Of a stretch of 64,000 nt of DNA, positions 8,457 through 54,901 are shown in pieces (the stretch's first letter is position 1; each line of letters opens with the position of its first letter). Under the pieces are notes generated by a model. It was not told the origin of the DNA, did no database searches, and saw nothing but the letters and a program-made list of their open reading frames with translations. The translations under genes and the position numbers were made by a program. Location of the stretch: IMG/VR virus record IMGVR_UViG_3300032092_000004, positions 89,131 through 153,130 of that record. One strand, given 5' to 3'. This DNA is from a virus.

Positions 8457-8458
8457 AA

Positions 8459-8608: not shown

Positions 8609-8619
8609 TCTATAATAAT

Positions 8620-9150: not shown

Positions 9151-9153
9151 ATA

Positions 9154-10005: not shown

Positions 10006-10017
10006 TATTTATATCAT

Positions 10018-10542: not shown

Positions 10543-10554
10543 ATTTATAAATAT
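10541..10554. promoter_or_regulatory. Palindromic ATATTTATAAATAT; putative bidirectional TATTTAT promoter
   Basis: Perfect 14-bp palindrome filling the gap between divergent start codons. Confidence 0.5.
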
Positions 10555-10556
10555 CT

Positions 10557-10973: not shown

Positions 10974-11019
10974 TAGTTTGGAACAAAAATTTTTATTATA
11001 TTTGTAGAAATAATTAGAG

Positions 11020-11295
11020 ATGATAAAGACGACCTTAAACCATAACATTAAAATCATGAACGAAAAATTCGGAACTTTGCTTTCTGAATCATTCGTAGAC
11101 CCAATCCAATTTAAGATCTTCTTAAAGATGGTAGATGGAGCATTAAATTTAGGTGAGGATTTATCTTACTTTGATGGTAATACCTTCTTGGTTCACATAC
11201 CAAATAAGATCCTAAAAGAATCTGTTATTTTAACAAACACAACTGAGATTAGTTTGGTAGAACAAGTTAGAAACAAAATTGAAAGTTTAGTATGA
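11020..11295 (+). CDS. Hypothetical protein
   Basis: 91-aa ORF; TATATTTG at 10997. Confidence 0.65.
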   Translation: MIKTTLNHNIKIMNEKFGTLLSESFVDPIQFKIFLKMVDGALNLGEDLSYFDGNTFLVHIPNKILKESVILTNTTEISLVEQVRNKIESLV

Positions 11296-11729
11296 TGAAG
11301 TCATTTGTAGTTTTTTTATTAAGTAACATTTTATTAACTTCTTGTTATAAAGAAGATATTAAACCTCAACAACCATTGAGTCCTCAACCGATAATTACTG
11401 ACTCAACTTTAGTTGATACTACATTATCATTGGCGGGACAAACTTGGGTTATCAAAAAAGTTTTAAACACTGATTTTGATGACGACTTAAGATCTGACAC
11501 TTTAATTTTTATTGATGTTGATGACTACACTTTTAACGGTTATCCATCTAAATATAAATTAACAACAACATCAACCACATATAATTTAACGTTATATGAT
11601 ACGCCTTGGGGTAACATTAGTGGAAATTTAATTAACTTTAATATTGTATCAGGTACAATAGAGAGTAAGACATTCAATGATATACTTGGTATATACGGTG
11701 AGACAAAAATATGGATGTATAGATTATAG
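11292..11729 (+). CDS. Putative lipoprotein
   Basis: Hydrophobic N-terminus ending in lipobox LLTSC. Confidence 0.7.
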   Translation: MMKSFVVFLLSNILLTSCYKEDIKPQQPLSPQPIITDSTLVDTTLSLAGQTWVIKKVLNTDFDDDLRSDTLIFIDVDDYTFNGYPSKYKLTTTSTTYNLTLYDTPWGNISGNLINFNIVSGTIESKTFNDILGIYGETKIWMYRL

Positions 11730-11790
11730 TTTCCTTGTTCTATAAAAATAAGGTGGTGGAGAAACTGACATTCAATGTCGGTCCTAAAAT

Positions 11791-11818
11791 AAAAGGTGAG
11801 GCTTTCTCACCTTTTTTT
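11791..11818 (+). terminator. Intrinsic terminator
   Basis: AAAAGGTGAG-gcttt-CTCACCTTTT followed by T run. Confidence 0.8.
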
Positions 11819-11852
11819 ATTTTTCATATATTTATATAATAAAAAATTTGAT

Positions 11853-12815
11853 ATGAAAAATAAATTTATTTTAACAGAGGAAGAATCTAAAAGAATTCTT
11901 TCTTTACACAAACAAAAAATCCAAGAAGAAAGAGAAAATATAGAAGAATATTCAGATCAAGGTCAGTCAGCAACTAGAATTGGAGGATCATTAGCTGCTG
12001 GCGCTGGAGTAGGTGCTGGTGTAGGTACAATCATTGCACCAGGTGTTGGAACAGTTGTTGGTGCAATTATTGGTGCTGGTGTTGGGGCATTAACAGGTTG
12101 GGCAACAACAGGAGGTGGATATTATGAAAGAGTTGCTAAAGCATTCAAATTTTGTCGTGATAATAGAAAATATATGGGTAAACCTGTAAACTCACCTGAA
12201 AAACTCCAAGACATTGCAGACTTTATAAGATCTGCAGTTACTGGTTTAGGTACTGATGAAGTTTTAATTGCAAAAAATTTAAGAAAATTAAAAACAATTC
12301 CTGATTTTTGTGCTTTAAGTAAAATTTATAATGAAAGATTTACTGAAACTTTATTCGATGCTTTGGACGGTGATATAGATCAAGATAATGAATGGAGAGA
12401 TTATGTTTGGTTACCAATTTCTGAATTGGCAAAAAATACAAAAAAAGTTAGCGAAGATAAGTTAAAAGAAAACGCTAAAAAATGCGGTTGGGGAACTGAC
12501 ATTAATGGTTATAGAAATTCAGGATGGCAATGTCCTAAAGGAGGAAAACCAACACCAAATCCTATTCCTAACCCTAATCCAAACCCTAATCCAAACCCTA
12601 ACCCAAATCCTAATCCAAACCCAAGAAGAAAAAGATATTATTTCAATTACCAAGATGCGTTAAACGCATTGAATAAAAAAGGATGTCCTACCGGAGGTGG
12701 TGGTGAAGAAGGTAAAAAAGAAGATGGTTTTGCCGATGATTGGAGAGTACCTCAAGCAGATCAAAAAGTTGATCCTGTAGTTTCATCTGACGATTTTTCA
12801 AATTGGTCTAAATAA
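11853..12815 (+). CDS. Tagged protein with glycine-zipper hydrophobic hairpin, annexin-like repeat and (PN)n linker
   Basis: ATG 11853 after TATTTAT; GAGVGAGVG...; SAVTGLGTDEVLI; PNPNPN tract. Confidence 0.7.
   Translation: MKNKFILTEEESKRILSLHKQKIQEERENIEEYSDQGQSATRIGGSLAAGAGVGAGVGTIIAPGVGTVVGAIIGAGVGALTGWATTGGGYYERVAKAFKFCRDNRKYMGKPVNSPEKLQDIADFIRSAVTGLGTDEVLIAKNLRKLKTIPDFCALSKIYNERFTETLFDALDGDIDQDNEWRDYVWLPISELAKNTKKVSEDKLKENAKKCGWGTDINGYRNSGWQCPKGGKPTPNPIPNPNPNPNPNPNPNPNPNPRRKRYYFNYQDALNALNKKGCPTGGGGEEGKKEDGFADDWRVPQADQKVDPVVSSDDFSNWSK
12548..12623 (+). repeat. Coding (Pro-Asn)n hexanucleotide repeat
   Basis: CCWAAY units with synonymous variation. Confidence 0.85.
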
Positions 12816-12831
12816 AAAAAAACAAATAACT

Positions 12832-13056
12832 ATGAGCAAGATTAAATTAACAGAAAGTCAATACAACAAATTAAAAAATAATATTGTTGAATCCGCATTA
12901 ATTACTGAAGCATCGAATACAAGAGAAGAGGTGATGACAGTTCAAAAAGCATTAAATAAATGCTTTAAAGCTGGTTTAGCTGAAGACGGAATTTGTGGAA
13001 AGAATACAAAATCTGCAATTGAGAGATACTTAGGAATTCCGGTTATGGAAGTTTAA
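12832..13056 (+). CDS. Small tagged protein with peptidoglycan-binding domain
   Basis: VQKALN...LAEDGICGKNTKSAI resembles PG_binding_1. Confidence 0.65.
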   Translation: MSKIKLTESQYNKLKNNIVESALITEASNTREEVMTVQKALNKCFKAGLAEDGICGKNTKSAIERYLGIPVMEV

Positions 13057-13079
13057 GTTTAGTATCCTATAAAAATAAT

Positions 13080-13104
13080 AAAGGGAGTTAAACTCCCTTT
13101 TTTT
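13080..13104 (+). terminator. Intrinsic terminator
   Basis: AAAGGGAGT-taa-ACTCCCTTT followed by T run. Confidence 0.8.
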
Positions 13105-13120
13105 ATGCAATTTTTTTTCA

Positions 13121-13128
13121 TATCTTTG
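13121..13128 (+). promoter_or_regulatory. Bacteroidota-type -7 promoter element TATCTTTG (one of at least 7 in the window)
   Basis: Matches TAnnTTTG, 4 nt upstream of ATG 13133. Confidence 0.65.
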
Positions 13129-13132
13129 TATT

Positions 13133-13552
13133 ATGGAAAAAGTATTATATATCGTTAGAGGAATACCGGGTAGTGGAAAATCCACATTGGCAAAAAGATT
13201 GGTTGGTGAAGATTTTTTGGTTTGCGAAGCCGATAAATATTTTATCAATGAAGAAAATGGTAAATATGAATTCGATATTTCAAAAATAAGAGACGCTCAT
13301 AAATGGTGTCAAAATTTAGTTGAAACTTACATGAGGGATAGTCTAATTAATGACCAGTATTATCGTGAAATTGCGGTATCCAACACATTTACACAGGAAT
13401 GGGAAATGGAACCGTATTTTGAATTGGCTAAAAAATATGGGTATAAAGTATTTTGTGTTGTTGTTGAAAATAGACATGGTGGTAAAAATCAACATGATGT
13501 TCCTGAAGAAAAGATTGAGTTAATGAAAGAAAGATTTGAAATAAAATTATAA
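13133..13552 (+). CDS. P-loop polynucleotide-kinase-like protein (AAA_33 type)
   Basis: RGIPGSGKST Walker A, EADKYF, VSNTF. Confidence 0.82.
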   Translation: MEKVLYIVRGIPGSGKSTLAKRLVGEDFLVCEADKYFINEENGKYEFDISKIRDAHKWCQNLVETYMRDSLINDQYYREIAVSNTFTQEWEMEPYFELAKKYGYKVFCVVVENRHGGKNQHDVPEEKIELMKERFEIKL

Positions 13553-14205
13553 TGAAGTTTGATAAAATATTAACAACAGGTAAAGTGTGGGTTACATCGG
13601 ATCCACACTATAACCACAAAAATATTTGTAGGGGAGTCACCAATTGGCGAACAAAAGATGGACTTGTACCTGATTTGTCAACAAGGGATTTCCCAACATT
13701 AGAACTAATGAACTCAACATTAGTAGAAAATATCAATGCAAAAGTTGGTCAGGATGATACTTTAATTATTTTGGGTGATGTGGCTTTTGGCGGATTTGAA
13801 AATATTGGAATTTTCTTAAACAGATTGGTATGTAAAAACATTCACTTGGTTCTTGGGAATCACGATCACCACATTAGAAACAACAGAGATAACATCAAAG
13901 ATATGTTTATATCTGTTAGTGATTACTTACAGGTTAATATTTTTGGGGTTGACTTTGTAATGACTCACTACCCATTTGAAAGTTGGAATGGTCTTAACAA
14001 AGGTGTTATTCACCTTCACGGACACGTTCATTTACCTATGAATAAAAAGTGGGGTAAAGGTAAACGATTGGATGTTGGTGTTGATGGAAACAACTTACAA
14101 CCGTATAGTATTACTGAGATTGTTCACATGATGGACAAACGAGAAATTGCATCTCAGATGGACGATGATCACCATTTAGACGATTTAGTTGGGGTTGTAG
14201 GATAA
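13552..14205 (+). CDS. Calcineurin-like metallophosphoesterase
   Basis: SDPH, LGD, GNHD, HGHVH motifs. Confidence 0.88.
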   Translation: MKFDKILTTGKVWVTSDPHYNHKNICRGVTNWRTKDGLVPDLSTRDFPTLELMNSTLVENINAKVGQDDTLIILGDVAFGGFENIGIFLNRLVCKNIHLVLGNHDHHIRNNRDNIKDMFISVSDYLQVNIFGVDFVMTHYPFESWNGLNKGVIHLHGHVHLPMNKKWGKGKRLDVGVDGNNLQPYSITEIVHMMDKREIASQMDDDHHLDDLVGVVG

Positions 14206-32061: not shown

Positions 32062-32352
32062 ATGGAAAAAGAAATATTAAAAGAAACGGTAAGCAAAGAA
32101 AGACCAGCACCGCAAAAGAAAAGAAATTACAAACCAAGAAAGAAAAAAGAAACTAAACAAGAAGAATTTACAGGTTTAGAAATGGAAATGGTCCAAAGAT
32201 CAAATGAAATACATAGTATCATAAAACCAAACCAAGCAGGTTCTTACAAGGTTGGAAAGAACTTTCACATTTTCTTTGAGAAAAAACCAAATTCAATACA
32301 CAGATTCTTCACCAAATTATTTTTGGGTTGGATATGGCAAGACCAAAAATAA
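32062..32352 (+). CDS. Hypothetical basic protein
   Basis: 96-aa ORF. Confidence 0.6.
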   Translation: MEKEILKETVSKERPAPQKKRNYKPRKKKETKQEEFTGLEMEMVQRSNEIHSIIKPNQAGSYKVGKNFHIFFEKKPNSIHRFFTKLFLGWIWQDQK

Positions 32353-32582
32353 AAAGAATTCATGTGAATCAACATCACATCAGATCTAATAAAACAAAAG
32401 GAACTGATCTACCTGTCATTACAATAAAGGAAGGTAAAACAAATACCTATTGTAATGAAGTTGAAATCTTAGGTCCAAGTAAAATTATATATGGTGGATC
32501 AGGTTGTGATGAAAAACCACTTTTGAGTTGTGGAGCAAGAGTGGTGATTGAAACTACAAGTGATATAAATATTATATCATAA
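32334..32582 (+). CDS. Hypothetical phage protein
   Basis: IHVNQH...PLLSCGARVVIET. Confidence 0.7.
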   Translation: MARPKIKRIHVNQHHIRSNKTKGTDLPVITIKEGKTNTYCNEVEILGPSKIIYGGSGCDEKPLLSCGARVVIETTSDINIIS

Positions 32583-32608
32583 AAAAACCCCGAGTGATCG
32601 GGGTTTTG
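32581..32608. terminator. Bidirectional intrinsic terminator
   Basis: AAAACCCCGA-gtga-TCGGGGTTTT between convergent genes. Confidence 0.82.
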
Positions 32609-32612
32609 TGTT

Positions 32613-33449
32613 TTACTTAAGTAAGTTGTAATACTCTTTAAAGTGTTTGATTCTATCAGGTAAACCAATAGTCCCACCATTCACTCTCTTTGTTACCGCA
32701 GTAACCGTAGCATCGTCAGCACCTTTATCACATATTGCCCACAATTTGTTTGAGTCAAAGAAGAATGCTGCCGAAGCCAAAGGATATTTTGTTGCAACTA
32801 AATCAGGATTAGAAACACAATCTTCACCAATAAATTTTGTGAAGTTAGTATAGTTCGCTTTACCTGTTAATTGAATGTAACCTCTTCCTCTAAACTTAAA
32901 ACCTTCTTTAGATGCTTCATCACCGTTACCCATTCTTGATGCGTAAACACGAGCGGCAATCTTTTCAGGTTGACGAGCGTAAGACTCATTTAGATTACCA
33001 GGGAAATACTTACCGAAGATCTTTTTCAAACCATCCGCAGAGTAATTTAAGTTCTCACTAACCGCTTTGAAATTACCTGATTCATGACCACATTGTGCCA
33101 AAAAATGAGCTAGTCTCAAATTATTTGTGATATTGAATTTTTTCGCGGTGTCAGGAATCTGAGCAAGAACCGCATCAGGAACATGACCTTTTAATTTTTC
33201 AATATTTAATGGACCTCCCGATGGGATAACCACATCCTCTTTGATTACTTCTGTGGTAGGTTTTGACTCACCAAATAGTTTTGCCCATGTTGCATCACCA
33301 ACGATACCATCATCTTTTAAACCATTTGATTTTTGCCAAGCTTTAACCGCAGCTTCTGTTTTAGGTCCAAATTTTCCTATGGCTTCTACGCCTAATTTTT
33401 CTTGGAGTTTTTTTACATCAGCCCCTTCTGATCCAACTTTTAGTATCAT
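32613..33449 (-). CDS. Endolysin: PG-binding domain plus GH19 lysozyme/chitinase
   Basis: LKVGS.G.DVKKLQ...DGIVG; AHFLAQCGHES, FRGRGYIQLTG, VNGG. Confidence 0.9.
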   Translation of the reverse strand: MILKVGSEGADVKKLQEKLGVEAIGKFGPKTEAAVKAWQKSNGLKDDGIVGDATWAKLFGESKPTTEVIKEDVVIPSGGPLNIEKLKGHVPDAVLAQIPDTAKKFNITNNLRLAHFLAQCGHESGNFKAVSENLNYSADGLKKIFGKYFPGNLNESYARQPEKIAARVYASRMGNGDEASKEGFKFRGRGYIQLTGKANYTNFTKFIGEDCVSNPDLVATKYPLASAAFFFDSNKLWAICDKGADDATVTAVTKRVNGGTIGLPDRIKHFKEYYNLLK

Positions 33450-33557
33450 AATTTTTGATTTTCCTATAAATAGTAAATTCTCAAACAAAGTAAAGATTTT
33501 AATATAAAAAAAACATCAGTTAGTGATTTTTAAGATACTTATTAGAAAAAGAGAATT

Positions 33558-34157
33558 ATGGGATACACAAGAGAACAGGTCGAGGCTGCCGTCAAAGCCA
33601 AAGGTTATGTTTACTTCGAAGACACAAACAACAAAGGGTTCGATGTAAACATTATAGGTATAAGAAATGCTGCTACTGGTCAAAAGGTAACAAATGCATT
33701 TGATGACTTATTAACAATAAGTTATAAAGATGAAACAGGTGCGTGGAAATATCACGAATGGCCGGCAACCACGGATCCTGGAAAAAAAGGTGTAATGGAA
33801 TATCACAACGCCGCAGGAGTTGCTAGACTTGTTGAAGGACAATACAGAGGTTCACACGGAATCGGTCTTCATCAAGGAAAGTACGAAGCATTAAAACAAG
33901 CAAAAAATGTTAAAGTTTATCGTGACCCAAATCGTGATTTAACTTATGACGAAACAAAAATTGCTGAAGGCGTATTTGGTATTAACATTCACAAGGCTGG
34001 TGCTGACTCAACTTATGTAGAGAATTGGAGTGAAGGATGTCAAGTCTTTAAAAAAGCTGCAGACTTTGAATCTTTTATGAAAATCTGTAGAAAGGCTAGA
34101 GACACTCACGGAAACTCTTTTACTTACACATTGATTGAAAGTTCGGACATAAAATAA
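33558..34157 (+). CDS. Putative L,D-transpeptidase-like (YkuD-type) protein
   Basis: GINIH...WSEGCQV His/Cys motif. Confidence 0.5.
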   Translation: MGYTREQVEAAVKAKGYVYFEDTNNKGFDVNIIGIRNAATGQKVTNAFDDLLTISYKDETGAWKYHEWPATTDPGKKGVMEYHNAAGVARLVEGQYRGSHGIGLHQGKYEALKQAKNVKVYRDPNRDLTYDETKIAEGVFGINIHKAGADSTYVENWSEGCQVFKKAADFESFMKICRKARDTHGNSFTYTLIESSDIK

Positions 34158-34186: not shown

Positions 34187-36094
34187 ATGAAACAATTAAG
34201 AAGTCTGTTATTTGGACTTTTATTTTTATTACCATTCATTGGTAAAGCTCAAGTACCTGCGGCCCCTTCAAACGGATTGTGGGGAATTATTGCATCCCAA
34301 TATCAAGTTGGGACAACCGCACAAGGCACAACAGATGCGAAGATTACATTACAAAACACAACCCTTACAAAATTTGCGGGGGTACAGTTTAGAGTATTCT
34401 ACGATAATGTAGCGTTTACAAATGCAACCGTATCTCTTATCGGATCATCAACAAACTTAGACCTTCAGTTTATCACCAACACAACAAATGGTTACATTAC
34501 CATTACTTTGGTTTATACAGGTCCAAGTGCGACTTATACGATTCCAAATGGTGAGAGATTTTTAATTACCTTTACTCACGCACCAGCAGCAACATTTAAT
34601 AACTTGGCGTCTATTTCCAACTTAACTTGGACAGGACCTCAGTCTTTTACACCATATGCTGCTAAACAAGATGGTATGGATACCACATTAAGTGTTCATA
34701 ACTATGGTGGTGTGTTCACACCTGTTAACTTCGACTATCATGGAACATTCACTAATGTTACAGGTACTTCGGCTAAATATTTAAATTTAGCATTAGAAAG
34801 AAGACCATTCGGTGGAAACACTTGGACACAACATTCTACTTATGTTACAGATATCAACGGAGACTTCAATATTTCAGTTCCATTGGACACAACATATTGG
34901 GATGTAAGATTAGCGATTCAAGGAGACACTATGGGTGTGGGTAATATTATTTCATCAACAGATGCTCAGTTGATTAATCAGTGGGTTCTTGGAAACGGTA
35001 CCATGACTGGTTTTGATTATTATACAGCAGATGTTAACGGATCTAATAACACAACAATATCTGATGTGTGGGGTGTATTTGGTAGAATCTCAGGTAGATT
35101 TACTCAATGGCCTAACAACACAAAAGATGTTAAGTTCTTTACAGCATCTGAATACACAACTATTAACGGATCTGTAACTAACTACACATCAACAATTGCA
35201 GGTGTAACAAACTTTACATTTGATATCTTACCGGGTCAACCTGACTCTGTAGTTTATTATGTAATGGTTCCTGGTGATGCCAACGGAACAGGTTATCATA
35301 TGGCTCGTGTAACTCCTATCGAAGTATTGGTCGGACCAATACCAGGTTTAGAGTCACAAATTTATAATGTAATCGACACCAAAGTTGAGTATGATTTCCC
35401 AACTTCAACAATTGAAGTTAATGTACCTAACATTTCTGTAGATGCAGGAAACTTGGTTGAATTACCAGTTAAAGTTTTTACAAACGGAGAAGTGTTATCA
35501 TCACTTCAGTTTGGATTGAAATACGACACTGACCTATTAGAATTTAAAGGTGTGTATTCTTCATCAAATGCTATGGAATGGATTACATATGTAAATCCAA
35601 ACGATGGTCAAGTTGATTGGGGTGGATTTGATCCTACAAATAATGAACAACCATTAGTGAATGGGGATGAGGTTGTGACTCTACAATTTATTGCTAAACA
35701 ACCACAGAACCTATGGGAAGAAAGTCCTCTTTACACTTCTTTGAAGTTTGCGGGAACGACACAATCTAAAGATCTAACAATTACACCAACAAATGGAATC
35801 CTTCAAGTATTAAAAAGTAATATGGGTGAAGTAGTTGGGAATACAATTTCAGTAGTCCCTAATCCTGTTATTGATGAAGTAACAATTTCATTTGAAGTTA
35901 AAGAAACAACAAATGCAAATCTATCAATTTCAGATGTTGTTGGAAGAAAGTTAATTACGATCTTGGATGGTCAATTACCTAATGGAGAGTATAGCTATGT
36001 TGAGAACTTAGGTAGTTTAGATAGAGGTCTTTACTTAGTTACATTAAGTATGGAAAACGGAGAAACAAAAGTTTCAAAAATTGTAAAACAATAA
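34187..36094 (+). CDS. Secreted cohesin/dockerin protein with T9SS type A C-terminal sorting domain
   Basis: Signal peptide GKA|Q; two cohesin-like domains; ADVNGSNNTTISD dockerin; VPNPV...GLYLV...SKIVKQ CTD. Confidence 0.8.
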   Translation: MKQLRSLLFGLLFLLPFIGKAQVPAAPSNGLWGIIASQYQVGTTAQGTTDAKITLQNTTLTKFAGVQFRVFYDNVAFTNATVSLIGSSTNLDLQFITNTTNGYITITLVYTGPSATYTIPNGERFLITFTHAPAATFNNLASISNLTWTGPQSFTPYAAKQDGMDTTLSVHNYGGVFTPVNFDYHGTFTNVTGTSAKYLNLALERRPFGGNTWTQHSTYVTDINGDFNISVPLDTTYWDVRLAIQGDTMGVGNIISSTDAQLINQWVLGNGTMTGFDYYTADVNGSNNTTISDVWGVFGRISGRFTQWPNNTKDVKFFTASEYTTINGSVTNYTSTIAGVTNFTFDILPGQPDSVVYYVMVPGDANGTGYHMARVTPIEVLVGPIPGLESQIYNVIDTKVEYDFPTSTIEVNVPNISVDAGNLVELPVKVFTNGEVLSSLQFGLKYDTDLLEFKGVYSSSNAMEWITYVNPNDGQVDWGGFDPTNNEQPLVNGDEVVTLQFIAKQPQNLWEESPLYTSLKFAGTTQSKDLTITPTNGILQVLKSNMGEVVGNTISVVPNPVIDEVTISFEVKETTNANLSISDVVGRKLITILDGQLPNGEYSYVENLGSLDRGLYLVTLSMENGETKVSKIVKQ

Positions 36095-36116
36095 ACACAA
36101 AATAAACAAAAACAAA

Positions 36117-36455
36117 ATGTCAGAAGAAACACAAGAGACAAATGACGGAACATGGTCAGGATTAAAAAAGACCATCGTTGGTACATTATCAACAGTAATT
36201 GCTGGTGGTGGAACTTGGTTAGGTGTGATGTTATATGGTGGTGGTGAAGAAGAACCAAAAGAGGAAACAAAAACAGAACAAAATGGAGGTCAAGCACCAA
36301 TCACAATTAATGTACAACAAAACCAAGAGAATAAACAAAAAACTGAGAACAATAATGGTGGTGGTGTAGTTCGTGAAAGAATTATCGAAAGACCGGCACA
36401 ACAACCAGCAACACAACCTGAAAAACCAAAAAAGGTTGAAGAGGAATCTTGGTAA
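36117..36455 (+). CDS. Single-TM membrane protein with Q/N-rich tail
   Basis: One hydrophobic segment; low-complexity C-terminus. Confidence 0.65.
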   Translation: MSEETQETNDGTWSGLKKTIVGTLSTVIAGGGTWLGVMLYGGGEEEPKEETKTEQNGGQAPITINVQQNQENKQKTENNNGGGVVRERIIERPAQQPATQPEKPKKVEEESW

Positions 36456-36488
36456 TAAAAAATAAATTATAAAAAAATTAAAAATAAA

Positions 36489-36770
36489 ATGGCACAAAAG
36501 AAAACAAAAAAATCATTCTTGGTTAGAATGTTTATGGATAAAAATGACATCAACGAGAAATCAATTGTAGGTTTTGGATCGTTTTTGATGATGGTGATTT
36601 GTCTTGGTGTTGATATCTACACAGGATTACACGGACAAGAAATGCCAATTAACAAATTCATCTACGATGGTTTTTTATGGATCACTTTAGGTTCATTTGG
36701 TATTGCTTCAGTTGACAAATACTTGTCAGGTAAAAATCAAACTAACGAGGAAGAAGAAGTAGAAGGATAA
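36489..36770 (+). CDS. 2-TM membrane protein (holin-like)
   Basis: Two TM segments, charged termini. Confidence 0.55.
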   Translation: MAQKKTKKSFLVRMFMDKNDINEKSIVGFGSFLMMVICLGVDIYTGLHGQEMPINKFIYDGFLWITLGSFGIASVDKYLSGKNQTNEEEEVEG

Positions 36771-37510
36771 TGAAAAGAATACTTTACATATTATCACTTT
36801 TATTGATTGGATGTAAAACAGTACAAGCCCAACCCCCTCAAAAAGGAGGGGGTATTGGCTCTGTTAAGACAGAACAATATGTTGCTGATTTTGAAAAGAA
36901 ACAATCAATAGACTCGGTTGCTGATTACGACGGATCAATTCAGGTTCCCATCCAATTATTAAAGATTGGTATCAACGAAGAACTTTATGAATTATATCCT
37001 GAGTTAAAAGATAAAAGAGTAGGTCTTGGCGTAACGAATATCGTAATCGAATATTTGGAATACACTAACAGATTTATTTTTACCGAAGAAAAGGAAGAGA
37101 TCAAACAAAGAATGATTGCTCAAGACAAAGCATCAGACAAGGGAGTATCTTCAAACAAAATCGAAGTGAAAGGTAATGTTGTATTAGCTAAATACTTTGT
37201 TTATATTGAGGTGTATGATTTCTCGGTATCTGAGGACGAAGTTGTAAAAGTTAATGGACAACAAACTGTAAATCAAACTACAAGATTAGGTCTTCAGATC
37301 AAATTTGTAGATGCTGAAACAAGTCAAGTGATTGTAGGATCAGGACTTGGAGAAGCCGTAACAATTAAAACAACATCAATCTTGGGTGATATCTCAGATG
37401 ATGTTAAATTCAATCAATCAACCGTAGGTATATCTACAAAAAAAGCTTTAGAGACAGCGTCATCAAGAGTTGTAACTAGACTTATATCAAAAGGTGTATT
37501 TCCAAAGTGA
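36770..37510 (+). CDS. CsgG/HfaB-like lipoprotein
   Basis: LLIGC lipobox; GLGVTNI..EYL..TNRF, VYDFS, QIKFVDAETSQV..GSGLG. Confidence 0.7.
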   Translation: MKRILYILSLLLIGCKTVQAQPPQKGGGIGSVKTEQYVADFEKKQSIDSVADYDGSIQVPIQLLKIGINEELYELYPELKDKRVGLGVTNIVIEYLEYTNRFIFTEEKEEIKQRMIAQDKASDKGVSSNKIEVKGNVVLAKYFVYIEVYDFSVSEDEVVKVNGQQTVNQTTRLGLQIKFVDAETSQVIVGSGLGEAVTIKTTSILGDISDDVKFNQSTVGISTKKALETASSRVVTRLISKGVFPK

Positions 37511-39159
37511 GAATAAACATTTTAATATCTTTGTTATTTGTCTTATTTAGTTTTTTCAATCTAAACGCACAGACTTATAACTATTCTTACACCGATCCTT
37601 GTACAGGAAATGTAAAAAATATCATAGTCCCCATCAATGGTTCAGTCACGGTGGGGTACTATGGTTTTGTCGAGAACTTTACTCAACAACAATTTACCGA
37701 TGGAACTTTTGAAACTTGGACTAACCAAGTTTTTTCGCAATATCAAGGATCTCCTTGTTCAGAAATAGTAGGACTTGGTGGTCAGATAAACATGGCTCAA
37801 GATGTTGCTTTAAATACAATAGGTATTATCAATTCACTATCGTCTTTAATGGACATATCAAATGGGGCAACAGATTTTCTTAGCGGTAGTTTAACCGCAG
37901 CATCTAACTCTTCTAATACCAATAATTCAGGTAATAAGAAGAATGGGAATAGTTCCCAAAATAATGGAAGTGGAAATAATAATAACGTTACAACAACAAA
38001 TACTAATAACTCCACAACCAATAACAATCAAAACCAAAATAATGGAACAAGTAACACTACTGAAGGAAGTCAAACCACTTCTGGAACAAATGAAACAAGT
38101 TCAAACAACGGAGGAAATGGAACCGCTAATACAAATGTTGGAACTCAAGGTACAACATCAACAGGAGGCTCTACAACTCAAAGTGGATCAAATGAAAATG
38201 GAAATTCACAGGCTGTGTCGCCTATAAACAATCAAAACACTAATACGAATGAAAACAATAGCAATACTACTGTCGGTAGCAATACTGGGGAGTCTAGTGG
38301 GAATGGGACTAGTGGGAATGGTGAAGGAAATAATCAAACGAACCAAGAAGTAACGACTAATGGTTCTAACGGTAATGGTAATTCTGGTGTTGGGAATAAT
38401 AATGAAAACCCACCTAGTGGTGAGGAAACTACAACCCAAACAGAAGAACAAGGTGGTGGACAAACCAACGTTACACAAGGAGCAACAAAAACAGTAAATC
38501 AGAATAGGGAAGGTGGAAAACCCACAGTCATCGCGTCAAGTGACTTTGTGGGTTTTAACTTTCAAAACTCTGAAGTTAAAACAGGATTGAAATTAACAGG
38601 AGGATATCATAACCTGCGTTGGGATGGTGAAACTGCTCGTGGTGGTTTAGTTGATTACGTGTCAGCACAAAAGGGGCCAAACATGACAGGATATCACGCA
38701 TGGATCAACAAAAAAAGTGTTGGACTTTTATCGGGAACTTTATCTTTAGGATTTGAAGGTAGGGGATCTGTCTATGGAACTTTAGCGGGTGGACAAATGT
38801 TCATGTTCCCAAAGATCCCAAGTCTTAAAGCGGTTTATATGGGAACAGTATCATACGGACAAGTTTATAAAACATCATTTTTAGGAACGGCTTTAATTGC
38901 TGGTGGAATGTATGACTTGAAGTTTGGTAAAAGAATAGATGTAAAGTTAATGACTTTATTTGTCTATTCACCATATGTAAGTTACTATAACGATTTAGTA
39001 TTAAAATCTCCTTATGTGATTCTACCAAGTTTGGGTACAAACATCGCAATTACAAAAAGATTTAAATTTAATATAAATGCAGGAGGTGCGTGGGCAATCA
39101 AGGTAAACACTTTAAATTATACAATAACATGTGGAACAAGATTATTAGTTGGACAATAG
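37507..39159 (+). CDS. Secreted protein with N/T/G-rich linker and C-terminal beta-barrel-like region
   Basis: Signal peptide LNA|Q; ~200-aa low-complexity middle; amphipathic strands at the C-terminus. Confidence 0.65.
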   Translation: MRINILISLLFVLFSFFNLNAQTYNYSYTDPCTGNVKNIIVPINGSVTVGYYGFVENFTQQQFTDGTFETWTNQVFSQYQGSPCSEIVGLGGQINMAQDVALNTIGIINSLSSLMDISNGATDFLSGSLTAASNSSNTNNSGNKKNGNSSQNNGSGNNNNVTTTNTNNSTTNNNQNQNNGTSNTTEGSQTTSGTNETSSNNGGNGTANTNVGTQGTTSTGGSTTQSGSNENGNSQAVSPINNQNTNTNENNSNTTVGSNTGESSGNGTSGNGEGNNQTNQEVTTNGSNGNGNSGVGNNNENPPSGEETTTQTEEQGGGQTNVTQGATKTVNQNREGGKPTVIASSDFVGFNFQNSEVKTGLKLTGGYHNLRWDGETARGGLVDYVSAQKGPNMTGYHAWINKKSVGLLSGTLSLGFEGRGSVYGTLAGGQMFMFPKIPSLKAVYMGTVSYGQVYKTSFLGTALIAGGMYDLKFGKRIDVKLMTLFVYSPYVSYYNDLVLKSPYVILPSLGTNIAITKRFKFNINAGGAWAIKVNTLNYTITCGTRLLVGQ

Positions 39160-40127
39160 TATTATTTTGTGTATTCTCACTAAACGCACAAACTTTTACA
39201 TATTCAGGTTACATAAGAAATGCTGATGGTACTGGAGCCGTTAACGTACCAGTAAAATTATACAAAAGAACGACACCTGTAATGAATGGGTTCACATCTC
39301 AAAATAATTACAACGGTCATTCTTATTATAGATCTACAGGATCTATGTTTTGGAATGACGCTAAACAAGCTTGTTTGAATATGGGAGGACACTTAGTTAC
39401 GGTAACAACCGCGGCAGAAAACTCTTTTATATTTGGTTTATGGCCTTCAGGTTGGATTGGATTAACTGATGAAGTAATAGAAGGTCAATGGAGATGGGTT
39501 ACAAATGAAACTTATTCATACACATCTTGGAATGGAGGCGAACCAAACAATGCGGGAAATGAAGATTACGTACAATTCGTGGGAGGGGGTAGATGGAATG
39601 ACTTACCAAACGGAGTTTCACTACCATATGTTTTAGAGTTTGAATACATAGTCACATACACACCATGGGTATTACATCAAACAGTCTACACAAATGCTTC
39701 AGGATATTATAGTTTTTCACAACCAACAAACCCATCAGTTGAATGGTATATTCAATACGACGCACCAACACCTGTTACTACATTACAGCTAACGGATATG
39801 ATCGAGGTTTCAAAGTTAGTTTTAGGGACTACATTAATTAAAAGTATTCACTACCATAGATATGATGTTAACTATGATGGTAGAATAAATGTCGCCGATG
39901 AGAATTACATTAATTTAAGAAGATTTGGGTTTTTAAATGGTTGGGTAAATACAACTCCCGCTCGATATTATACAACTGCACAATACACAACATTAACAAC
40001 AAACACAACAGATATGAGAATAGCAATTCCTGGTGTGTCATCTATAACAATAAACTCACCTGTAAGTGGGGGATCACAAAACTATTACTTGATTGCTTCC
40101 GGGTATAAATCAACAGTTAATTATTAA
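39129..40127 (+). CDS. Secreted C-type lectin domain protein with dockerin-like repeat
   Basis: LNA|Q; WIGLTD, GEPNN, EDY, WNDL; YDVNYDGRINVAD. Confidence 0.82.
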   Translation: MWNKIISWTIVLFCVFSLNAQTFTYSGYIRNADGTGAVNVPVKLYKRTTPVMNGFTSQNNYNGHSYYRSTGSMFWNDAKQACLNMGGHLVTVTTAAENSFIFGLWPSGWIGLTDEVIEGQWRWVTNETYSYTSWNGGEPNNAGNEDYVQFVGGGRWNDLPNGVSLPYVLEFEYIVTYTPWVLHQTVYTNASGYYSFSQPTNPSVEWYIQYDAPTPVTTLQLTDMIEVSKLVLGTTLIKSIHYHRYDVNYDGRINVADENYINLRRFGFLNGWVNTTPARYYTTAQYTTLTTNTTDMRIAIPGVSSITINSPVSGGSQNYYLIASGYKSTVNY

Positions 40128-40579
40128 TGAAAAATATAATCTTACTACTTGGTATGTTACTACTTGGTAACCTCGCAATGGCTCAACAATGTGTTTATGT
40201 TGATTCAGTTTACAACACAGCTAAATTAAAAGAGATGGGAAACAGAGACATTCGTTTTGGTATTAGACAAATTGTTGAAGACGAACTATCTGAAAAGTTC
40301 TGTTTATCTGAAGATGGAAAAGATATTGATGTTGAAGTATATTACTTTGGATTACCAAAGACAACGATCAGAATTGTTGGTGTTGAAAAAACAGAATCAG
40401 TTACACAGGTTGGTGTAAGACTATATTATGATGGTAAATGTTATGAAGGTATTGGAGAATCTGAAACTGAGATCAGAGCAATAATGATTGAAGTAAAAGA
40501 GGGGATGTTACCTTTTGAAAAAATGACTGTATCATCAGCACTTAAGAAGGCTATACACGAAGCTGTTATCAAAATATGA
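40127..40579 (+). CDS. Secreted protein, possible small CsgG-like fold
   Basis: AMA|Q signal; C-terminus (GIGESE...FEKMTVSSALKKA) parallels 36770 (GLGEAV...FNQSTVGISTKKA). Confidence 0.55.
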   Translation: MKNIILLLGMLLLGNLAMAQQCVYVDSVYNTAKLKEMGNRDIRFGIRQIVEDELSEKFCLSEDGKDIDVEVYYFGLPKTTIRIVGVEKTESVTQVGVRLYYDGKCYEGIGESETEIRAIMIEVKEGMLPFEKMTVSSALKKAIHEAVIKI

Positions 40580-41028
40580 AAATATGGCAACTTTTGATAT
40601 TATTAATGTTTTGGTCATCATCTTTCTCGCAAATCCGTATTGCGGATGTTGGAGATGGTTGGAAAAATAAAGTAGAACAGGCTTTAGATACCATAAAGAA
40701 ATACGATATTCATAAGTATTATCTGATTATGGAGAACTGTTCTAATGTTGCATATTGGAACGGAGGGTTTTCAACAACAGAGGGAGATAGTACAATTACC
40801 ATTTCAACAAGAGAAATGAAAGATGGAAATATCTATAACATTTCTGTAATACTTGTTCACGAATCTTTACATTTATTCTTCAAAAGATCCAACTTCAACT
40901 TTAAACCAAATCTTGAAGAAGTGGTATGTTATCAACATGAGTTGGAGTTTTTAGAAAAAATACCTTGTGTTGATGATTGGTTAATAGAAAACGCCAAAAA
41001 CAAAATCAAATTTTATTCAAAACCATAG
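40576..41028 (+). CDS. Secreted HExxH metallopeptidase-like protein
   Basis: SFS|Q signal; LVHESLH...EE. Confidence 0.6.
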   Translation: MKIWQLLILLMFWSSSFSQIRIADVGDGWKNKVEQALDTIKKYDIHKYYLIMENCSNVAYWNGGFSTTEGDSTITISTREMKDGNIYNISVILVHESLHLFFKRSNFNFKPNLEEVVCYQHELEFLEKIPCVDDWLIENAKNKIKFYSKP

Positions 41029-41063
41029 TTGATTTCACAACACAAATCATTTATTTTTTAGGT

Positions 41064-41357
41064 ATGAAAAAACTTAAAATAGATCCAAACAAAATTATTA
41101 AAGTAAAACCAAGAATGATCAAAGAAGGTTCTGATGTTGCTCCATTATTTACAATTATACTTGGATTTTTACTTGGTATCGTTTTTATGTCTTTAGTGTC
41201 CTGTGAAGAACAAAAATCACAAAAAGAAATCCCAACAGAAATTACAAATGTAACTGAATACACTTACCAAGAGTGTGAATACATCAAGGTAGGAATTGGC
41301 ACTCGTGCTTGGGGAACACATAAAGGAAATTGTAAAAACCCAATCCACAAAAAATGA
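41064..41357 (+). CDS. Membrane protein or lipoprotein
   Basis: TM segment ending LVSC; HKGNCKNPIH tail. Confidence 0.55.
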   Translation: MKKLKIDPNKIIKVKPRMIKEGSDVAPLFTIILGFLLGIVFMSLVSCEEQKSQKEIPTEITNVTEYTYQECEYIKVGIGTRAWGTHKGNCKNPIHKK

Positions 41358-42051: not shown

Positions 42052-42740
42052 TACTTACAATACTTTCTGATACACACAACAAACACAATCATGTCAAAGG
42101 TGACTTGAAAGGTGGTGATTTGTTATTACATGCTGGTGACATTTCCTCTATGGGTTATGAACACGAGATCGTACAATTTACTTCTTGGTTTAGTAGACTT
42201 GATGCGTACAAACACAAAGTATTCATTGCTGGTAACCACGATTGGGGTTTTCAAAATAATGTTGAGAAAGTTAAAGAGATAGTTGATTTTTATCCTACTA
42301 TGACTTATCTACAAGACCAACTACATACCATTCAAGATGATAATGGGACTGAAGTTAAAATTTGGGGTAGTCCTTGGCAACCTGAGTTCTACAATTGGGC
42401 ATTTAACTTACCACGAAATGGTGAAGAGTTAAAAGCTGTATGGGATATGATACCTGAAGATATTGATATCTTAATTACTCACGGTCCAGCTTGGGGTATT
42501 TTGGATGATGTTGAAGGTAACCGCAATGTTCATTTGGGTTGTGAATTACTTGCGGAGCGAATCAAACAAATCAAACCAAAGATCCATATCTGTGGACACA
42601 TCCACACTGGCTACGGACACTACTACGACGGACATACACACTACTTCAATGCTGCTATGTTGAATGAGCGATACCTATATTCACATTTACCTTGGCACAT
42701 TGATTGGAACCCAATAACAAATGAAATTAAATTTTTGTAA
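42048..42740 (+). CDS. Metallophosphoesterase (MPPED-like)
   Basis: SDTH, HAGD, AGNHD, ITHGP, CGHIH. Confidence 0.88.
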   Translation: MILTILSDTHNKHNHVKGDLKGGDLLLHAGDISSMGYEHEIVQFTSWFSRLDAYKHKVFIAGNHDWGFQNNVEKVKEIVDFYPTMTYLQDQLHTIQDDNGTEVKIWGSPWQPEFYNWAFNLPRNGEELKAVWDMIPEDIDILITHGPAWGILDDVEGNRNVHLGCELLAERIKQIKPKIHICGHIHTGYGHYYDGHTHYFNAAMLNERYLYSHLPWHIDWNPITNEIKFL

Positions 42741-43237
42741 TGGAGAAAGCACATTTTATTGAGAACAGAGTTTTCAGAGACATACGAGGAACATTTAGCC
42801 CATTAGATCTTACTAAGTTAGATAAGAATTGGTTACAGAGTAATATTAGCGTAAACCCCCGTAAATACACACTTCGGGGGTTACATTTCCAAAAGAATGA
42901 ATATGCTCAAGCCAAACTAATTAAGGTCATTTCAGGAAAAATATTGGACTTCGTTATTGATATGAGAACTGTGTCTGAAGATTACAATAAAGTATTTTTC
43001 TTTGAAATGGATGAAGGTGATGAGGTGTATGTCCCAAGATACTTTGCTCACGGATTTATAACAACCGAGGAAGACTCGGTAGTTCAATATTTGGTTGATA
43101 ATGATTATAGTCCTGATAACGAAGGAGTTAAAGTTTGGACTGATTATCCTGAGATTGAAAGAAAAATAAAAGAGTTAGATCCATTCTTTGGAAAAGAACT
43201 TGTAATCATACATGATAAAGATTTAATTGAAAAATAA
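42740..43237 (+). CDS. rfbC: dTDP-4-dehydrorhamnose 3,5-epimerase
   Basis: D.RG.F, LRGLHFQ, QAKL, FAHGF. Confidence 0.9.
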   Translation: MEKAHFIENRVFRDIRGTFSPLDLTKLDKNWLQSNISVNPRKYTLRGLHFQKNEYAQAKLIKVISGKILDFVIDMRTVSEDYNKVFFFEMDEGDEVYVPRYFAHGFITTEEDSVVQYLVDNDYSPDNEGVKVWTDYPEIERKIKELDPFFGKELVIIHDKDLIEK

Positions 43238-52975: not shown

Positions 52976-53637
52976 TGGACAGAGAAAAAATATTAAAACT
53001 ATTCAAAAGGTTTGCTGGTGATGCAATTGATCTTTACGGATTGAAATGTATTCCTGTTGGACTTGGGGAAGAAATAATATCAAAAAGACATAATAAACCT
53101 TATTATCCGATTGAATTTAAAATTAAAAATCCAAATGATGTTTCTTATTTCTATTCAATAGTAGATGAGGAACTTTTAGATATAGTAATGGAGTTTGAAG
53201 AATATGTTGGCCTTAAATTAACTACTAAAGTATTATGGGGTGAACAACCAACATTTTATCTTAACGACAAAACAAAAAACAAAATTCAAAAAGTTTTCGA
53301 CTCTGTAAGAGAAATTAAATTCACCACAGGAACCCCATTTGTTGGGTATAGAAGATATGTAATCAATATAGAATCTGTTGGTTTAAAAAGCAAACATTTT
53401 GATGATGATGTGTATTATATTCAAAACACCGTTGTCCCATTATCAGCAACAAAAAATGGTGAAAATATTGATGTTAATGATGCGATAAATGAATATATCG
53501 ATGAGTTCTTACCACATGTTGAAACATATTATGAAAGTGAAGAATATTATCGAGGTGTTGATCAAGTAATCAGTCAACACCCATTACTTAACGCTGATTA
53601 TGTTGCAACTTATTACGACACCAAGTTTATCCGATAA
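52972..53637 (+). CDS. Hypothetical protein
   Basis: 221-aa ORF. Confidence 0.65.
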   Translation: MMDREKILKLFKRFAGDAIDLYGLKCIPVGLGEEIISKRHNKPYYPIEFKIKNPNDVSYFYSIVDEELLDIVMEFEEYVGLKLTTKVLWGEQPTFYLNDKTKNKIQKVFDSVREIKFTTGTPFVGYRRYVINIESVGLKSKHFDDDVYYIQNTVVPLSATKNGENIDVNDAINEYIDEFLPHVETYYESEEYYRGVDQVISQHPLLNADYVATYYDTKFIR

Positions 53638-54901
53638 GGGACTTACTTCTTTTCTTACGGTGAAAAGTAATAACAAATCGGTGAACTTCATTTTGAATCT
53701 CGGCTAACAAAAACCCAAACTCACTTCTTGGAATATCAAAACTTAAGCCATCAATCTTGTGGATTGTAGATGATCTGTGTTTTTCGTCTTTTGAAATGGA
53801 GATCAAGTCAACTCGATTCAATAAACCAAGATCCTCAAATACTTTTTTGGCGACACCCAACTGACCTTTACCACCATCAATAATAACAAGTGAGGGTAAC
53901 TCTTGTTTCTCATTTAAAAGTCTCTTGAATCGACGATTTAATACCTCATCGAAAGAAGCATAGTCATCAGGACCCTCAACAGTTTTGATGTTGAACTTAC
54001 GATAGTTAGACTTATCAGTTTTACCATTCTTGTAACGAACAAGAGCGGACACCTGACAATCACCAGCGGTATGAGAGTTATCAAATGCCTCAATAAGAGT
54101 TGGAACATTCAATAAACCAAATTGTTCTTTGAAAGATCTTGCAATATCGCTATACTTTCGAATACGAAATGACTCAAGTCTTTTCTCCAATAAATCAACA
54201 ACATCCATTTTGTTTTTGAAGTTTTGAGCAAGCTCAAACTCCATTTGATCAGAGTGATACTTCATGTACTTCTTCAAACGATTTCGAACTTTGTCGAACT
54301 GAAATGAAAATACATCTTTCATCTCACTTACAATCTTCAAGTAAGAAAACTTTTGAATAGAAGAAACACAAGGAGCATTACAACGACCAAGATGAAACTC
54401 CAAACAATTCTTGAACTTTTCGTTTTGGATATTCTCTTCAGTCAAGTTGTAAGAACAAGATCTAAGATTGAAAATGTCATGGACCATCTCATAGATCTCA
54501 TAACAAGAGTTGGAACTTGTAGACTCCAAAAGAACTTCACCAGTAAAGTTAGAAGGATTACAAACCAAAAGTCTTGGGAACTCATCTTCACTCAAAGTAA
54601 TAAACCAACGACGAGAACGATCATCTTTTGCTTTGATGTTGTATTTTGGTTTGTGTGATTTGATAAGTTCATCCTCCAGTAACAAAGCCTGACTTTCATC
54701 ATTTGTAGTCATGAACTCAACATCAGTGATCTCATTCACCAAAGACAAAGTCTTCTGATCTTTGTGATTTTTCTGAAAGTAAGACTTCACTCGTTTTGGT
54801 AGATACTTTGACTTACCAACATAGATGATCTGACCCTTCTTGTTTTTGAAAAGGTAACAGCCGCTAGATTGGGGGATATTTGAAAGTTTCTCTGTAATCA
54901 C
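53627..54901 (-). CDS. uvrC: UvrC-like excinuclease (GIY-YIG + UVR + RNase H-like; no HhH)
   Basis: GCYLF..IIYVGKS, PKYN, IEAFDNSH, YRKFNI, DDYAS, IIDGGKGQ, EVHRF. Confidence 0.9.
   Translation of the reverse strand: MITEKLSNIPQSSGCYLFKNKKGQIIYVGKSKYLPKRVKSYFQKNHKDQKTLSLVNEITDVEFMTTNDESQALLLEDELIKSHKPKYNIKAKDDRSRRWFITLSEDEFPRLLVCNPSNFTGEVLLESTSSNSCYEIYEMVHDIFNLRSCSYNLTEENIQNEKFKNCLEFHLGRCNAPCVSSIQKFSYLKIVSEMKDVFSFQFDKVRNRLKKYMKYHSDQMEFELAQNFKNKMDVVDLLEKRLESFRIRKYSDIARSFKEQFGLLNVPTLIEAFDNSHTAGDCQVSALVRYKNGKTDKSNYRKFNIKTVEGPDDYASFDEVLNRRFKRLLNEKQELPSLVIIDGGKGQLGVAKKVFEDLGLLNRVDLISISKDEKHRSSTIHKIDGLSFDIPRSEFGFLLAEIQNEVHRFVITFHRKKRSKSLIG

Follow-up and report, generated by a model that had tools for sequence, protein, structure and literature searches.

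A conserved gene block of large Flavobacterium-type phages encodes a candidate exported assembly with a cohesin, a T9SS sorting domain, an exchangeable lectin and an outer-membrane barrel

Gene content, export signals and conservation of the block

The 64,000-nucleotide stretch of DNA analysed here (hereafter the window) spans positions 89,131 to 153,130 of the IMG/VR virus record IMGVR_UViG_3300032092_000004; it is the terminal 64 kb of this 153-kb record, whose completeness was estimated by CheckV as about half. Within the window lies a block of eight genes (g1 to g8), the products of which include a protein with a cohesin and a type IX secretion system (T9SS) C-terminal sorting domain (CTD), a C-type lectin, a predicted outer-membrane beta-barrel and two proteins assigned to the CsgG fold. 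The genes of the block and their main parts are the following (aa, amino acids; Ca, calcium):

g1, 34187..36094, + strand: 635-aa protein with a signal peptide ending in GKA before Q, a cohesin-like domain, a beta-sandwich with a dockerin-like insert, a cohesin and a T9SS type A CTD
g1 aa 48-130, 34328..34576, + strand: cohesin-like domain, sub-threshold (PF00963, E 5.9e-4)
g1 aa 243-309, 34913..35113, + strand: dockerin-like two-helix module with the Ca loop DVNGSNNTTISD (profile match to 4uyp_B)
g1 aa 409-507, 35411..35707, + strand: cohesin (Pfam, E 1.4e-9)
g1 aa 558-633, 35858..36085, + strand: T9SS type A C-terminal sorting domain (PF18962/TIGR04183, E 3.8e-9)
g2, 36117..36455, + strand: 112-aa protein whose aa 19-42 form a Gly-rich, weakly hydrophobic segment, and whose tail is charged and disordered
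g3, 36489..36770, + strand: 93-aa membrane protein with a hydrophobic hairpin, a variable member of the block
g4, 36770..37510, + strand: secreted CsgG-fold protein with a lipobox (LIGC) followed by a conserved AQ site
g5, 37507..39159, + strand: protein with a signal peptide, a Cys-bearing head (aa 22-130), a stalk rich in S/T/N/G and a predicted 12-strand outer-membrane barrel (aa 333-550)
g6, 39129..40127, + strand: protein with a signal peptide ending in LNA before Q and a C-type lectin (EPN, WND) placed within a beta-sandwich, which bears a dockerin-like module as well
g6 Ca loop, 39864..39899, + strand: dockerin-type loop motif DVNYDGRINVAD, specific within the window to g1 and g6
g7, 40127..40579, + strand: small secreted paralogue of g4 with a minimal CsgG/LpoB-type core and an invariant Cys after the AQ site
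g8, 40576..41028, + strand: small secreted protein with HE[ST]xH (aa 95-99) and EE...Y..E, a putative mini-zincin

The eight open reading frames (ORFs) fill positions 34187-41028 on the + strand, and are separated by 22-33 nucleotides (nt) or overlap by 1-4 nt. An earlier reading of this DNA, made from the sequence alone (the sequence-only reading), had described eight co-oriented, tightly packed genes, and all of these ORFs are present where it placed them. It had also reported five signal peptides ending before Gln, as is typical of Bacteroidota; this was confirmed, the alignments of the families showing no or almost no variation of this Gln, and g4 adds a sixth product with a cleavage site before a conserved Gln. 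None of the eight proteins has a family in PHROGs, no match to known defence or exclusion families was obtained for the block proteins with PADLOC, and only the CTD of g1 was recognised among them by NCBIfam.

Conservation was counted in 80 related viral contigs fetched with g4 as query. Both g4 and g5 are present in 80 of the 80 contigs, g1 in 79 and g2 in 77, whereas g3 was found in only 27; g7 and g8 reach 65/80, a count that has to be read knowing that many contigs end early. The gene order is kept across the loci, except for the mobile gene of the g6 slot (lectin) and for g8, which in some loci lies on the opposite strand, just upstream of g1. The block is also present, as gp13-gp19 with gp13 as the lectin, in the cultured Flavobacterium phage immuto. 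These data bear out the suggestion that the block is conserved as an operon among relatives. In a species-representative genome collection, a profile of the close alignment found the g4 family in two contigs of metagenome-assembled genomes (MAGs) only, namely a T4-like phage contig and a contig with an endolysin and a Peptidase_S74 tail-fibre chaperone domain, and the family was not found in 400 further genomes sampled from the phylum of MAG G002. Judging by these searches, the block is phage-restricted within what was searched, and it is among the most conserved non-structural modules of its clade.

A diverged form of the block was observed in a Sediminibacterium MAG contig (L084, positions 11055-14007), with a cohesin protein, g2-, g4- and g5-like genes and an endolysin upstream. 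This contig also carries a Peptidase_S74 domain, and behind its block come genes for an Lcl_C (C-type-lectin-like) protein and for two glycosyltransferases. This diverged block suggests that phages with Chitinophagaceae-type hosts carry the module, too.

The phage and its host

The window is AT-rich, has nearly all of its genes on one strand and many small ORFs, and encodes phage-typical proteins (RNA ligase, thymidylate synthase, ClpP and the endolysin described below). The only cultured relatives found by DNA and protein searches were the 160-kb Flavobacterium myophages vB_FspM_immuto, genus Immutovirus. In addition, a T4-type Gp23 capsid gene is present on a syntenic contig of 254 kb from the bin of a Bacteroidetes MAG. 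Owing to the kinship with immuto and to Gp23 on the syntenic contig, the assignment of the source to a large T4-like phage of Flavobacterium-type hosts is sound, and the phage origin indicated by the IMG/VR virus record was thereby corroborated. The sequencing runs that contain the stretch are mainly freshwater metagenomes.

The g1 scaffold and its natural split

The C-terminal cohesin of g1 scored 38.8 bits with PF00963 (cut-off 24.1, E 1.4e-9), and the g1 family profile covers the whole length of the solved cohesin 2vn5_A. The sorting domain, within aa 557-635 of 635, scored 36.4 bits with TIGR04183 (cut-off 23) and 37.2 bits with PF18962 (cut-off 27). The family profile, built from 17 homologues, also matches the solved T9SS CTD 8glj_D. 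The CTD is present in every g1 homologue aligned, and g1 is the only protein of the 153-kb record with a Por_Secre_tail domain. Hidden Markov models thus agreed with the sequence-only reading for the cohesin and for the CTD, both above their cut-offs. They did not for the dockerin, since Pfam Dockerin_1 remained sub-threshold in g1 (E 0.013), although the same family profile matches the solved dockerin 4uyp_B at aa 243-309 (E 0.0015).

Type I dockerins consist of a duplicated 22-residue segment, each copy with a 12-residue, EF-hand-like Ca loop and a helix. When a strict pattern for this loop was run over the six frames of the 64-kb window, it was found only in g1 and g6, and it did not occur in 3035 shuffled ORFs.

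The organisation of the g1 equivalent in immuto bears on how these parts may work, because there it is divided into two genes. The N-terminal domain and the dockerin-like base belong to gp14, which has a signal peptide and no CTD, and gp15 has its own signal peptide, ending in LYS before Q, followed by the cohesin and the CTD. That g1 is fused in most phages and split in immuto suggests, by a Rosetta-stone argument, that the dockerin half and the cohesin plus CTD half act together. The split also implies that a dockerin-bearing protein without a CTD would be the normal state for gp14 and for the lectins. A cohesin-dockerin pairing within the block is predicted on these grounds.

The lectin g6 and its exchangeable slot

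The lectin domain of g6 was identified with PF00059 (Lectin_C; 57 bits, cut-off 22.6, E 3.9e-15), and its EPN and WND motifs are invariant in 13 orthologues. Together with the loop DVNYDGRINVAD, this supports the description of g6 as a C-type lectin with a dockerin-like repeat. The C-terminal half of g6 and the middle of g1 are homologous. Translation likely starts at the ATG at 39129 rather than at the GTG at 39090. The former gives a normal signal peptide, MWNKIISWTIVLFCVFSLNA, followed by Q, and the longest ORF, from the GTG, overlaps the end of g5 by 70 nt; several orthologues retain a longer N-terminal extension (MG.K....KLY.NMW).

In the relatives, the slot after g5 holds either a GEVED domain or Lectin_C, the latter alone or joined to a ConA-like Laminin_G_3 domain or to Ig_7. 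GEVED and Ig_7 domains are typical of extracellular proteins of Bacteroidota. As tblastn with g6 indicates, the variants retain its C-terminal region, and two of the proteins with Lectin_C and a ConA-like domain gave weak Dockerin_1 matches. The slot is modular, with swappable heads on a constant dockerin-like base, and g6 is predicted to be exposed at the surface. Some relatives (L022, positions 8250-11062) insert three ORFs of 290, 197 and 336 aa between the lectin and g7.

The barrel protein g5 and the small proteins g2, g3 and g8

Structure prediction covered g4 and the barrel of g5. The C-terminal domain of g5 (about 218 aa) was modelled by AlphaFold2 as an all-beta meander of 12-13 strands with a predicted local distance difference test score (pLDDT) of 78. 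In Foldseek it matched NalP, EstA, KdgM, NanC and FapF with a probability of 1.0 (template-modelling score 0.55-0.65), and BrkA, EspP and intimin were further structural matches. Every strand has one charge-free face. A sequence-profile search of the PDB with the barrel returned nothing useful. An alignment of 25 homologues showed that the head (aa 22-130) is conserved, with two invariant Cys, and that the S/T/N/G linker is hypervariable, ranging from almost none to several hundred residues. The proposal of a secreted linker/barrel protein therefore stands, with the signal peptide, the linker and the 12-strand model as evidence, and on this model g5, with its head, stalk and C-terminal barrel, resembles a type Va autotransporter in its build, a feature that the sequence-only reading had not noted.

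The two membrane proteins proposed for the block were upheld in part: g3 has a clear hydrophobic hairpin, whereas the segment of g2 is Gly-rich and weakly hydrophobic. The N-terminal 54 aa of g2 are 63% identical to gp16 of immuto. As for g8, the putative HExxH peptidase, HE[ST]xH and the downstream EE...Y..E are both invariant in 18 homologues; at the family level only a weak match to Tox-MPTase2 was obtained (E 0.038), and a profile search of the PDB gave no sequence match.

The CsgG-fold proteins g4 and g7

No match to g4 was found by sequence in Pfam, NCBIfam, PHROGs or the PDB, and BLAST with g4 against cultured phages found none except immuto. An exhaustive profile search retrieved 266 cluster representatives only. 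Among 36 sequences aligned with g4, the more distant ones match Pfam CsgG (13/36) or LpoB (6/36), and fusions to Ser/Thr kinases or to a caspase domain occur in some of the distant relatives. The AlphaFold model of g4 (pLDDT 78) has CsgG as its top match (Foldseek E 6e-8), with VIA Z scores of 11-12.8 over 160-184 residues; against 4uv2 the Z score was 12.8, with a root mean square deviation of 3.8 over 162 residues. The next matches were CT253, Cj1090c, PelC, FlgT and LptE (Z 8-10), those to PelC, LptE and FlgT having Z scores of 8.4-9.5 over 118-150 residues. Profile-profile comparison with hhalign linked g7 to g4 (96.4%, E 1.2e-9), confirming g7 as a second small CsgG-like protein, and sequence-profile searches of the PDB with g7 and with a distant relative of g4 yielded nothing useful. 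The description of g4 as a CsgG-like lipoprotein was thus right as regards the fold, although PF03783 does not match g4 itself; as regards the lipid anchor, the lipobox Cys is present in 9/13 aligned sequences of the family, whereas the signal peptidase I site (A before Q) is present in 13/13.

The sequence-only reading had further proposed that the phage exports proteins through its own channel. This can be put more precisely as a curli-like (type VIII) secretion, in which g4 would form an oligomeric outer-membrane pore with the lectin, the low-complexity region of g5 or something else as its substrate. CsgG is the top structural match of g4, distant relatives match Pfam CsgG, some close homologues are labelled CsgG in the JGI annotation, and csgG and csgF occur in other T4-like aquatic phages (PMC7029224). 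However, a rough sequence test on the monomer model showed that each face of the three long g4 strands has 1-3 charged residues, unlike the barrel of g5, and that the tip of the hairpin is acidic and polar. Of the 13 aligned family sequences, 4 lack the lipobox Cys. No CsgF, CsgE or CsgA/B-like protein was found with Pfam or NCBIfam among the eight block proteins or their neighbours, nor a curli-type repeat, and the linker of g5 varies in length and sequence with no repeat structure. A folded, disulfide-containing lectin would, moreover, not get through a constriction of the CsgG type. A complete curli system was rejected for the lack of CsgF/E/A/B, and the function of a CsgG channel does not follow from the fold, given the charged strands, the non-conserved lipobox Cys and the absence of these partners. 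A phage-owned CsgG channel is accordingly doubtful on the model, and curli-like secretion as an account of the block is quite improbable. On the precedents of LptE-LptD and PelC-PelB, and given the 4-nt overlap of g4 and g5, g4 and g7 would rather be partners of the g5 barrel than pores.

The fold relatives of g4 also include TraT, weakly (Z 7.3), which brings in a superinfection block confined to the periplasm. Such a block would stop DNA entry or adsorption, as T4 Imm/Sp, T5 Llp and plasmid TraT do, with no lectins on the outside. The envelope targeting of all the products agrees with it, and the variable heads of the g6 slot suggest an arms race. Nevertheless, the CTD kept in all aligned g1 homologues argues for passage across the outer membrane, no known defence or exclusion family was matched, and a probable late timing (see below) suits exclusion poorly, so that this explanation is unlikely.

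The neighbourhood of the block

Three features precede the block:

Endolysin, 32613..33449, - strand: PG_binding_1 and a GH19-like lysozyme domain, no signal peptide, divergent from the block
T4-type late-promoter-like motif TATAAATA, 33465..33472, + strand: consensus match, 86 nt upstream of g0-g8
g0, 33558..34157, + strand: cytoplasmic 199-aa protein of phrog_3000 with an H...SxGC motif

Of 75 related loci, 25 have the motif TATAAATA upstream of the block at a distance of up to 160 nt, where chance would give 0.016 matches per window. A scan for sigma-70 promoters stayed at chance level, and no strong terminators were found inside the block. The gene g0 is present in 36/80 loci, sometimes downstream of the block, and has no Pfam match. 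By eye, its H...SxGC motif looks like the active site of an L,D-transpeptidase (YkuD).

The late-promoter motif would also suit virion-associated proteins, i.e. lectin and Ig-like (immunoglobulin-like) modules decorating capsids or fibres, with signal peptides of no relevance; such domains do occur on phage particles. Yet six products have conserved cleavable signal peptides with the Bacteroidota Gln at +1, and the products include one predicted outer-membrane barrel and one T9SS CTD. No PHROG structural families are present in the block, and the annotated genes that flank it in the window and in immuto include some for nucleotide metabolism and none for structural proteins. We rejected a virion component, which is very improbable, on account of the signal peptides, the barrel and the CTD.

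In 59 of 83 loci, g4 has an endolysin homologue at a distance of 8 kb or less. This homologue may lie upstream or downstream and on one strand or the other, and some loci have it directly after the last gene of the block in the same orientation. Neither this linkage nor the late-promoter motif had been noted in the sequence-only reading. The linkage agrees with a view of the block as a lysis-linked envelope module, which would breach the Bacteroidota envelope, or time its breach, together with the endolysin. The small proteins g2 and g3 would be holin-like, the barrel, the CsgG-fold proteins and the peptidase would weaken the outer membrane or its tethers, and the lectins would bind peptidoglycan or lipopolysaccharide in the periplasm. 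The late-promoter motif upstream of the block is in line with such a role. The endolysin, since it has no signal peptide, requires a holin; no recognised holin or spanin was found near the block, and no small lipoprotein embedded in or adjoining an i-spanin-like gene was seen there. A part in lysis has already been proposed for phage CsgG homologues (PMC9004378). On the other hand, g2 and g3 match no holin family in Pfam or PHROGs, the hydrophobicity of g2 is weak and g3 is frequently missing. The T9SS CTD, the cohesin and the exchangeable heads (lectin, ConA, GEVED, Ig) are foreign to any known lysis system, and in immuto the block has no adjoining annotated lysis gene, the nearest annotated peptidoglycan hydrolase being about 9 kb off. 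We consider this module for lysis rather unlikely.

Other observations concern the surroundings of the block. A perfect 10-bp GC-rich hairpin with A/T runs on both sides (32584-32607) has the look of a terminator acting in both directions; it separates the endolysin gene from a convergent ORF (32328-32582). At the other end, an ORF at 40977-41357 overlaps the end of g8 and has homologues in 7 loci; it contains an internal Met, a strongly hydrophobic segment and a lipobox-like LVSC, and may encode a further lipoprotein. Downstream of the block, at a distance of 1.7 kb and beyond the genes of a DUF2452 protein and a metallophosphoesterase, lies that of an RmlC-like dTDP-4-dehydrorhamnose 3,5-epimerase (42740-43237, E 2e-34); it recurs downstream in 15 loci and may have to do with surface sugars or DNA modification. 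Elsewhere in the window, a gene on the - strand (2679-5234), opposite to most genes, encodes an 851-aa protein with 12 DUF5122 beta-propeller repeats (E 1e-179), and another on the - strand (53627-54901) a UvrC-like protein with a GIY-YIG nuclease and a UvrC RNase H-like domain.

A candidate envelope assembly

The reading we favour, with a probability of about 0.5, is that the block encodes a late exported envelope assembly in which a cohesin carried by the T9SS, docked exchangeable lectin heads and a barrel foot form a glycan-binding coat. The block would be expressed in the infected Bacteroidota cell, probably late and alongside the lysis enzyme, and all of its products would leave the cytoplasm through Sec. 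The g1 protein (or gp15) would then be a cargo of the host T9SS, its cohesin and CTD serving as carrier and surface anchor. Proteins with the shared sandwich and the dockerin-like Ca module, that is, the N-terminal half of g1 and the proteins of the g6 slot, would dock on the cohesin or cohesins, either in the periplasm with subsequent co-export or at the surface. The slot would supply an exchangeable ligand-binding head, here a Ca-dependent C-type lectin of the EPN type (mannose/N-acetylglucosamine) and elsewhere a ConA-like, Ig-like or GEVED domain. In the outer membrane, g5 would be inserted by its 12-strand barrel, with a small, disulfide-bonded head on a long and flexible stalk. The proteins g4 and g7 would be periplasmic partners of the barrel or of the complex, as LptE is of LptD and PelC of PelB, and with the barrel they may constitute an outer-membrane foot. 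The outcome would be a glycan-binding coat over the infected cell and its debris, possibly binding neighbouring cells. Its likeliest use would be to cover or engage surface glycans around lysis: the coat could mask receptors, so that progeny are protected and rivals excluded, or stick to further hosts. The data themselves show the conservation of the block, its domains and folds, the interchangeable heads, the split of g1 in immuto and the endolysin linkage; binding, export route, timing and biological role are what we infer from these features, and aggregation, grazer avoidance and shielding, the roles named in the sequence-only reading, are guesses.

A more specific form of the envelope assembly is possible, though tentative. 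In this form a viral cohesin-dockerin system piggy-backs on the host T9SS, the protein with cohesin and CTD carrying dockerin-tagged lectins that have no CTD of their own, and the cell or its debris is re-coated with glycan binders tuned to the host.

Several results weigh against the assembly. Dockerin modules of the block stay below the PF00404 cut-off (16.1 and 15.7 bits against 22.9, with 22.8 bits in one relative), and in the dockerin-like modules the second Ca loop is canonical whereas the first is degenerate. The N-terminal domain of g1 was proposed as cohesin-like. Its PF00963 match (E 5.9e-4) and its ESM features, which are nearest to Cohesin-carrying clusters, point weakly in that direction, but the score of 16.9 bits is below the cut-off, hhalign against the C-terminal cohesin of g1 itself was negative, and a sequence-profile search of the PDB with this domain gave nothing useful. 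The lectin g6 has no CTD, and we know of no piggy-back export through the T9SS. No helical plug segment is evident before the barrel of g5. Finally, the constant endolysin linkage is compatible with a part in lysis, too.

Lakes and seas hold large Bacteroidota phages in abundance, yet hardly anything is known of their effects on the host surface. The block combines four well-understood principles, namely T9SS sorting, cohesin-dockerin docking, a C-type lectin, and a barrel with a partner of the CsgG/LptE fold, in a way unreported in any virus. If the lectins are displayed, they would give the phage a new control over adsorption, aggregation or the loss of progeny, and such an assembly, if true, would amount to a natural plug-and-play surface display for Bacteroidota. 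Should the piggy-back form hold, it would be the first viral cohesin-dockerin machine and the first case of hitch-hiking T9SS export. The cultured pair of immuto and Flavobacterium sp. LMO8 makes the block directly testable.

Comparison with known systems

No description of the block was found in the literature, nor any paper on a phage cohesin-dockerin module or on a phage module of T9SS cargo. The closest case in print is the csgG/csgF cluster carried by T4-like pelagimyophages (HTVC008M group) and by the methylophage Melnitz, in which a gene of the CsgG fold lies in a small operon with uncharacterised secreted proteins (PMC7029224; PMC9004378). The host lacks such a system, and aggregation ("sibling capture"), uptake and lysis control have been proposed as roles (PMC7029224; PMC9004378). 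In those phages CsgG and CsgF are recognisable and of proteobacterial type, whereas g4 is invisible to Pfam CsgG and the present block has no CsgF. Neither a cohesin nor a T9SS tag, a lectin or a stalked barrel is mentioned for that cluster in these accounts (PMC7029224; PMC9004378), and the block shares with it only the distant CsgG fold. If the envelope assembly is true, it would offer a handle on these equally unexplained clusters.

The protein g1 resembles T9SS type A cargo, such as the gingipains and the enzymes and adhesins of Flavobacterium johnsoniae, in its Sec signal peptide and its C-terminal Por_Secre_tail above the cut-off. Unlike bacterial cargo, it comes from a virulent-type phage and is the sole CTD protein of the record. 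It may act as a carrier for partners without a CTD, which is undescribed for the T9SS.

The CsgG/PelC/LptE/FlgT/LpoB group is represented by the fold of g4 and by the position of its gene beside that of an outer-membrane barrel, as with LptE/LptD and PelC/PelB. It differs in that g4 shows no conserved lipid anchor and, by the rough test on the monomer model, no amphipathic membrane hairpins, and its family is narrow and, within the searches, phage-restricted. The head, linker and C-terminal barrel of about 218 aa make g5 similar to type Va autotransporters and to small 12-strand barrels (NalP, EstA, KdgM, NanC, FapF), from which it differs in the lack of a sequence family match or an evident plug and in a "passenger" of about 110 aa on a hypervariable stalk.

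Cohesin-dockerin assemblies comprise the cellulosomal scaffoldins as well as non-cellulosomal modules that are widespread in bacteria and archaea. The block is like them in having a cohesin above the Pfam threshold, two-helix modules with a DxNxDGxxxxxD Ca loop on several proteins of one operon, and varied heads on a common docking module. It departs from the cellulosomal systems in being phage-encoded, in carrying lectins rather than enzymes, and in that binding is predicted. Its dockerin-like module, with a degenerate first loop, is an insert in a transthyretin/CarboxypepD_reg-like sandwich, and anchoring would use a T9SS CTD, as opposed to SLH domains or sortase. The modular lectin slot, the scaffold split of immuto and the linkage to the endolysin and a late-promoter motif are the new points that this block adds.

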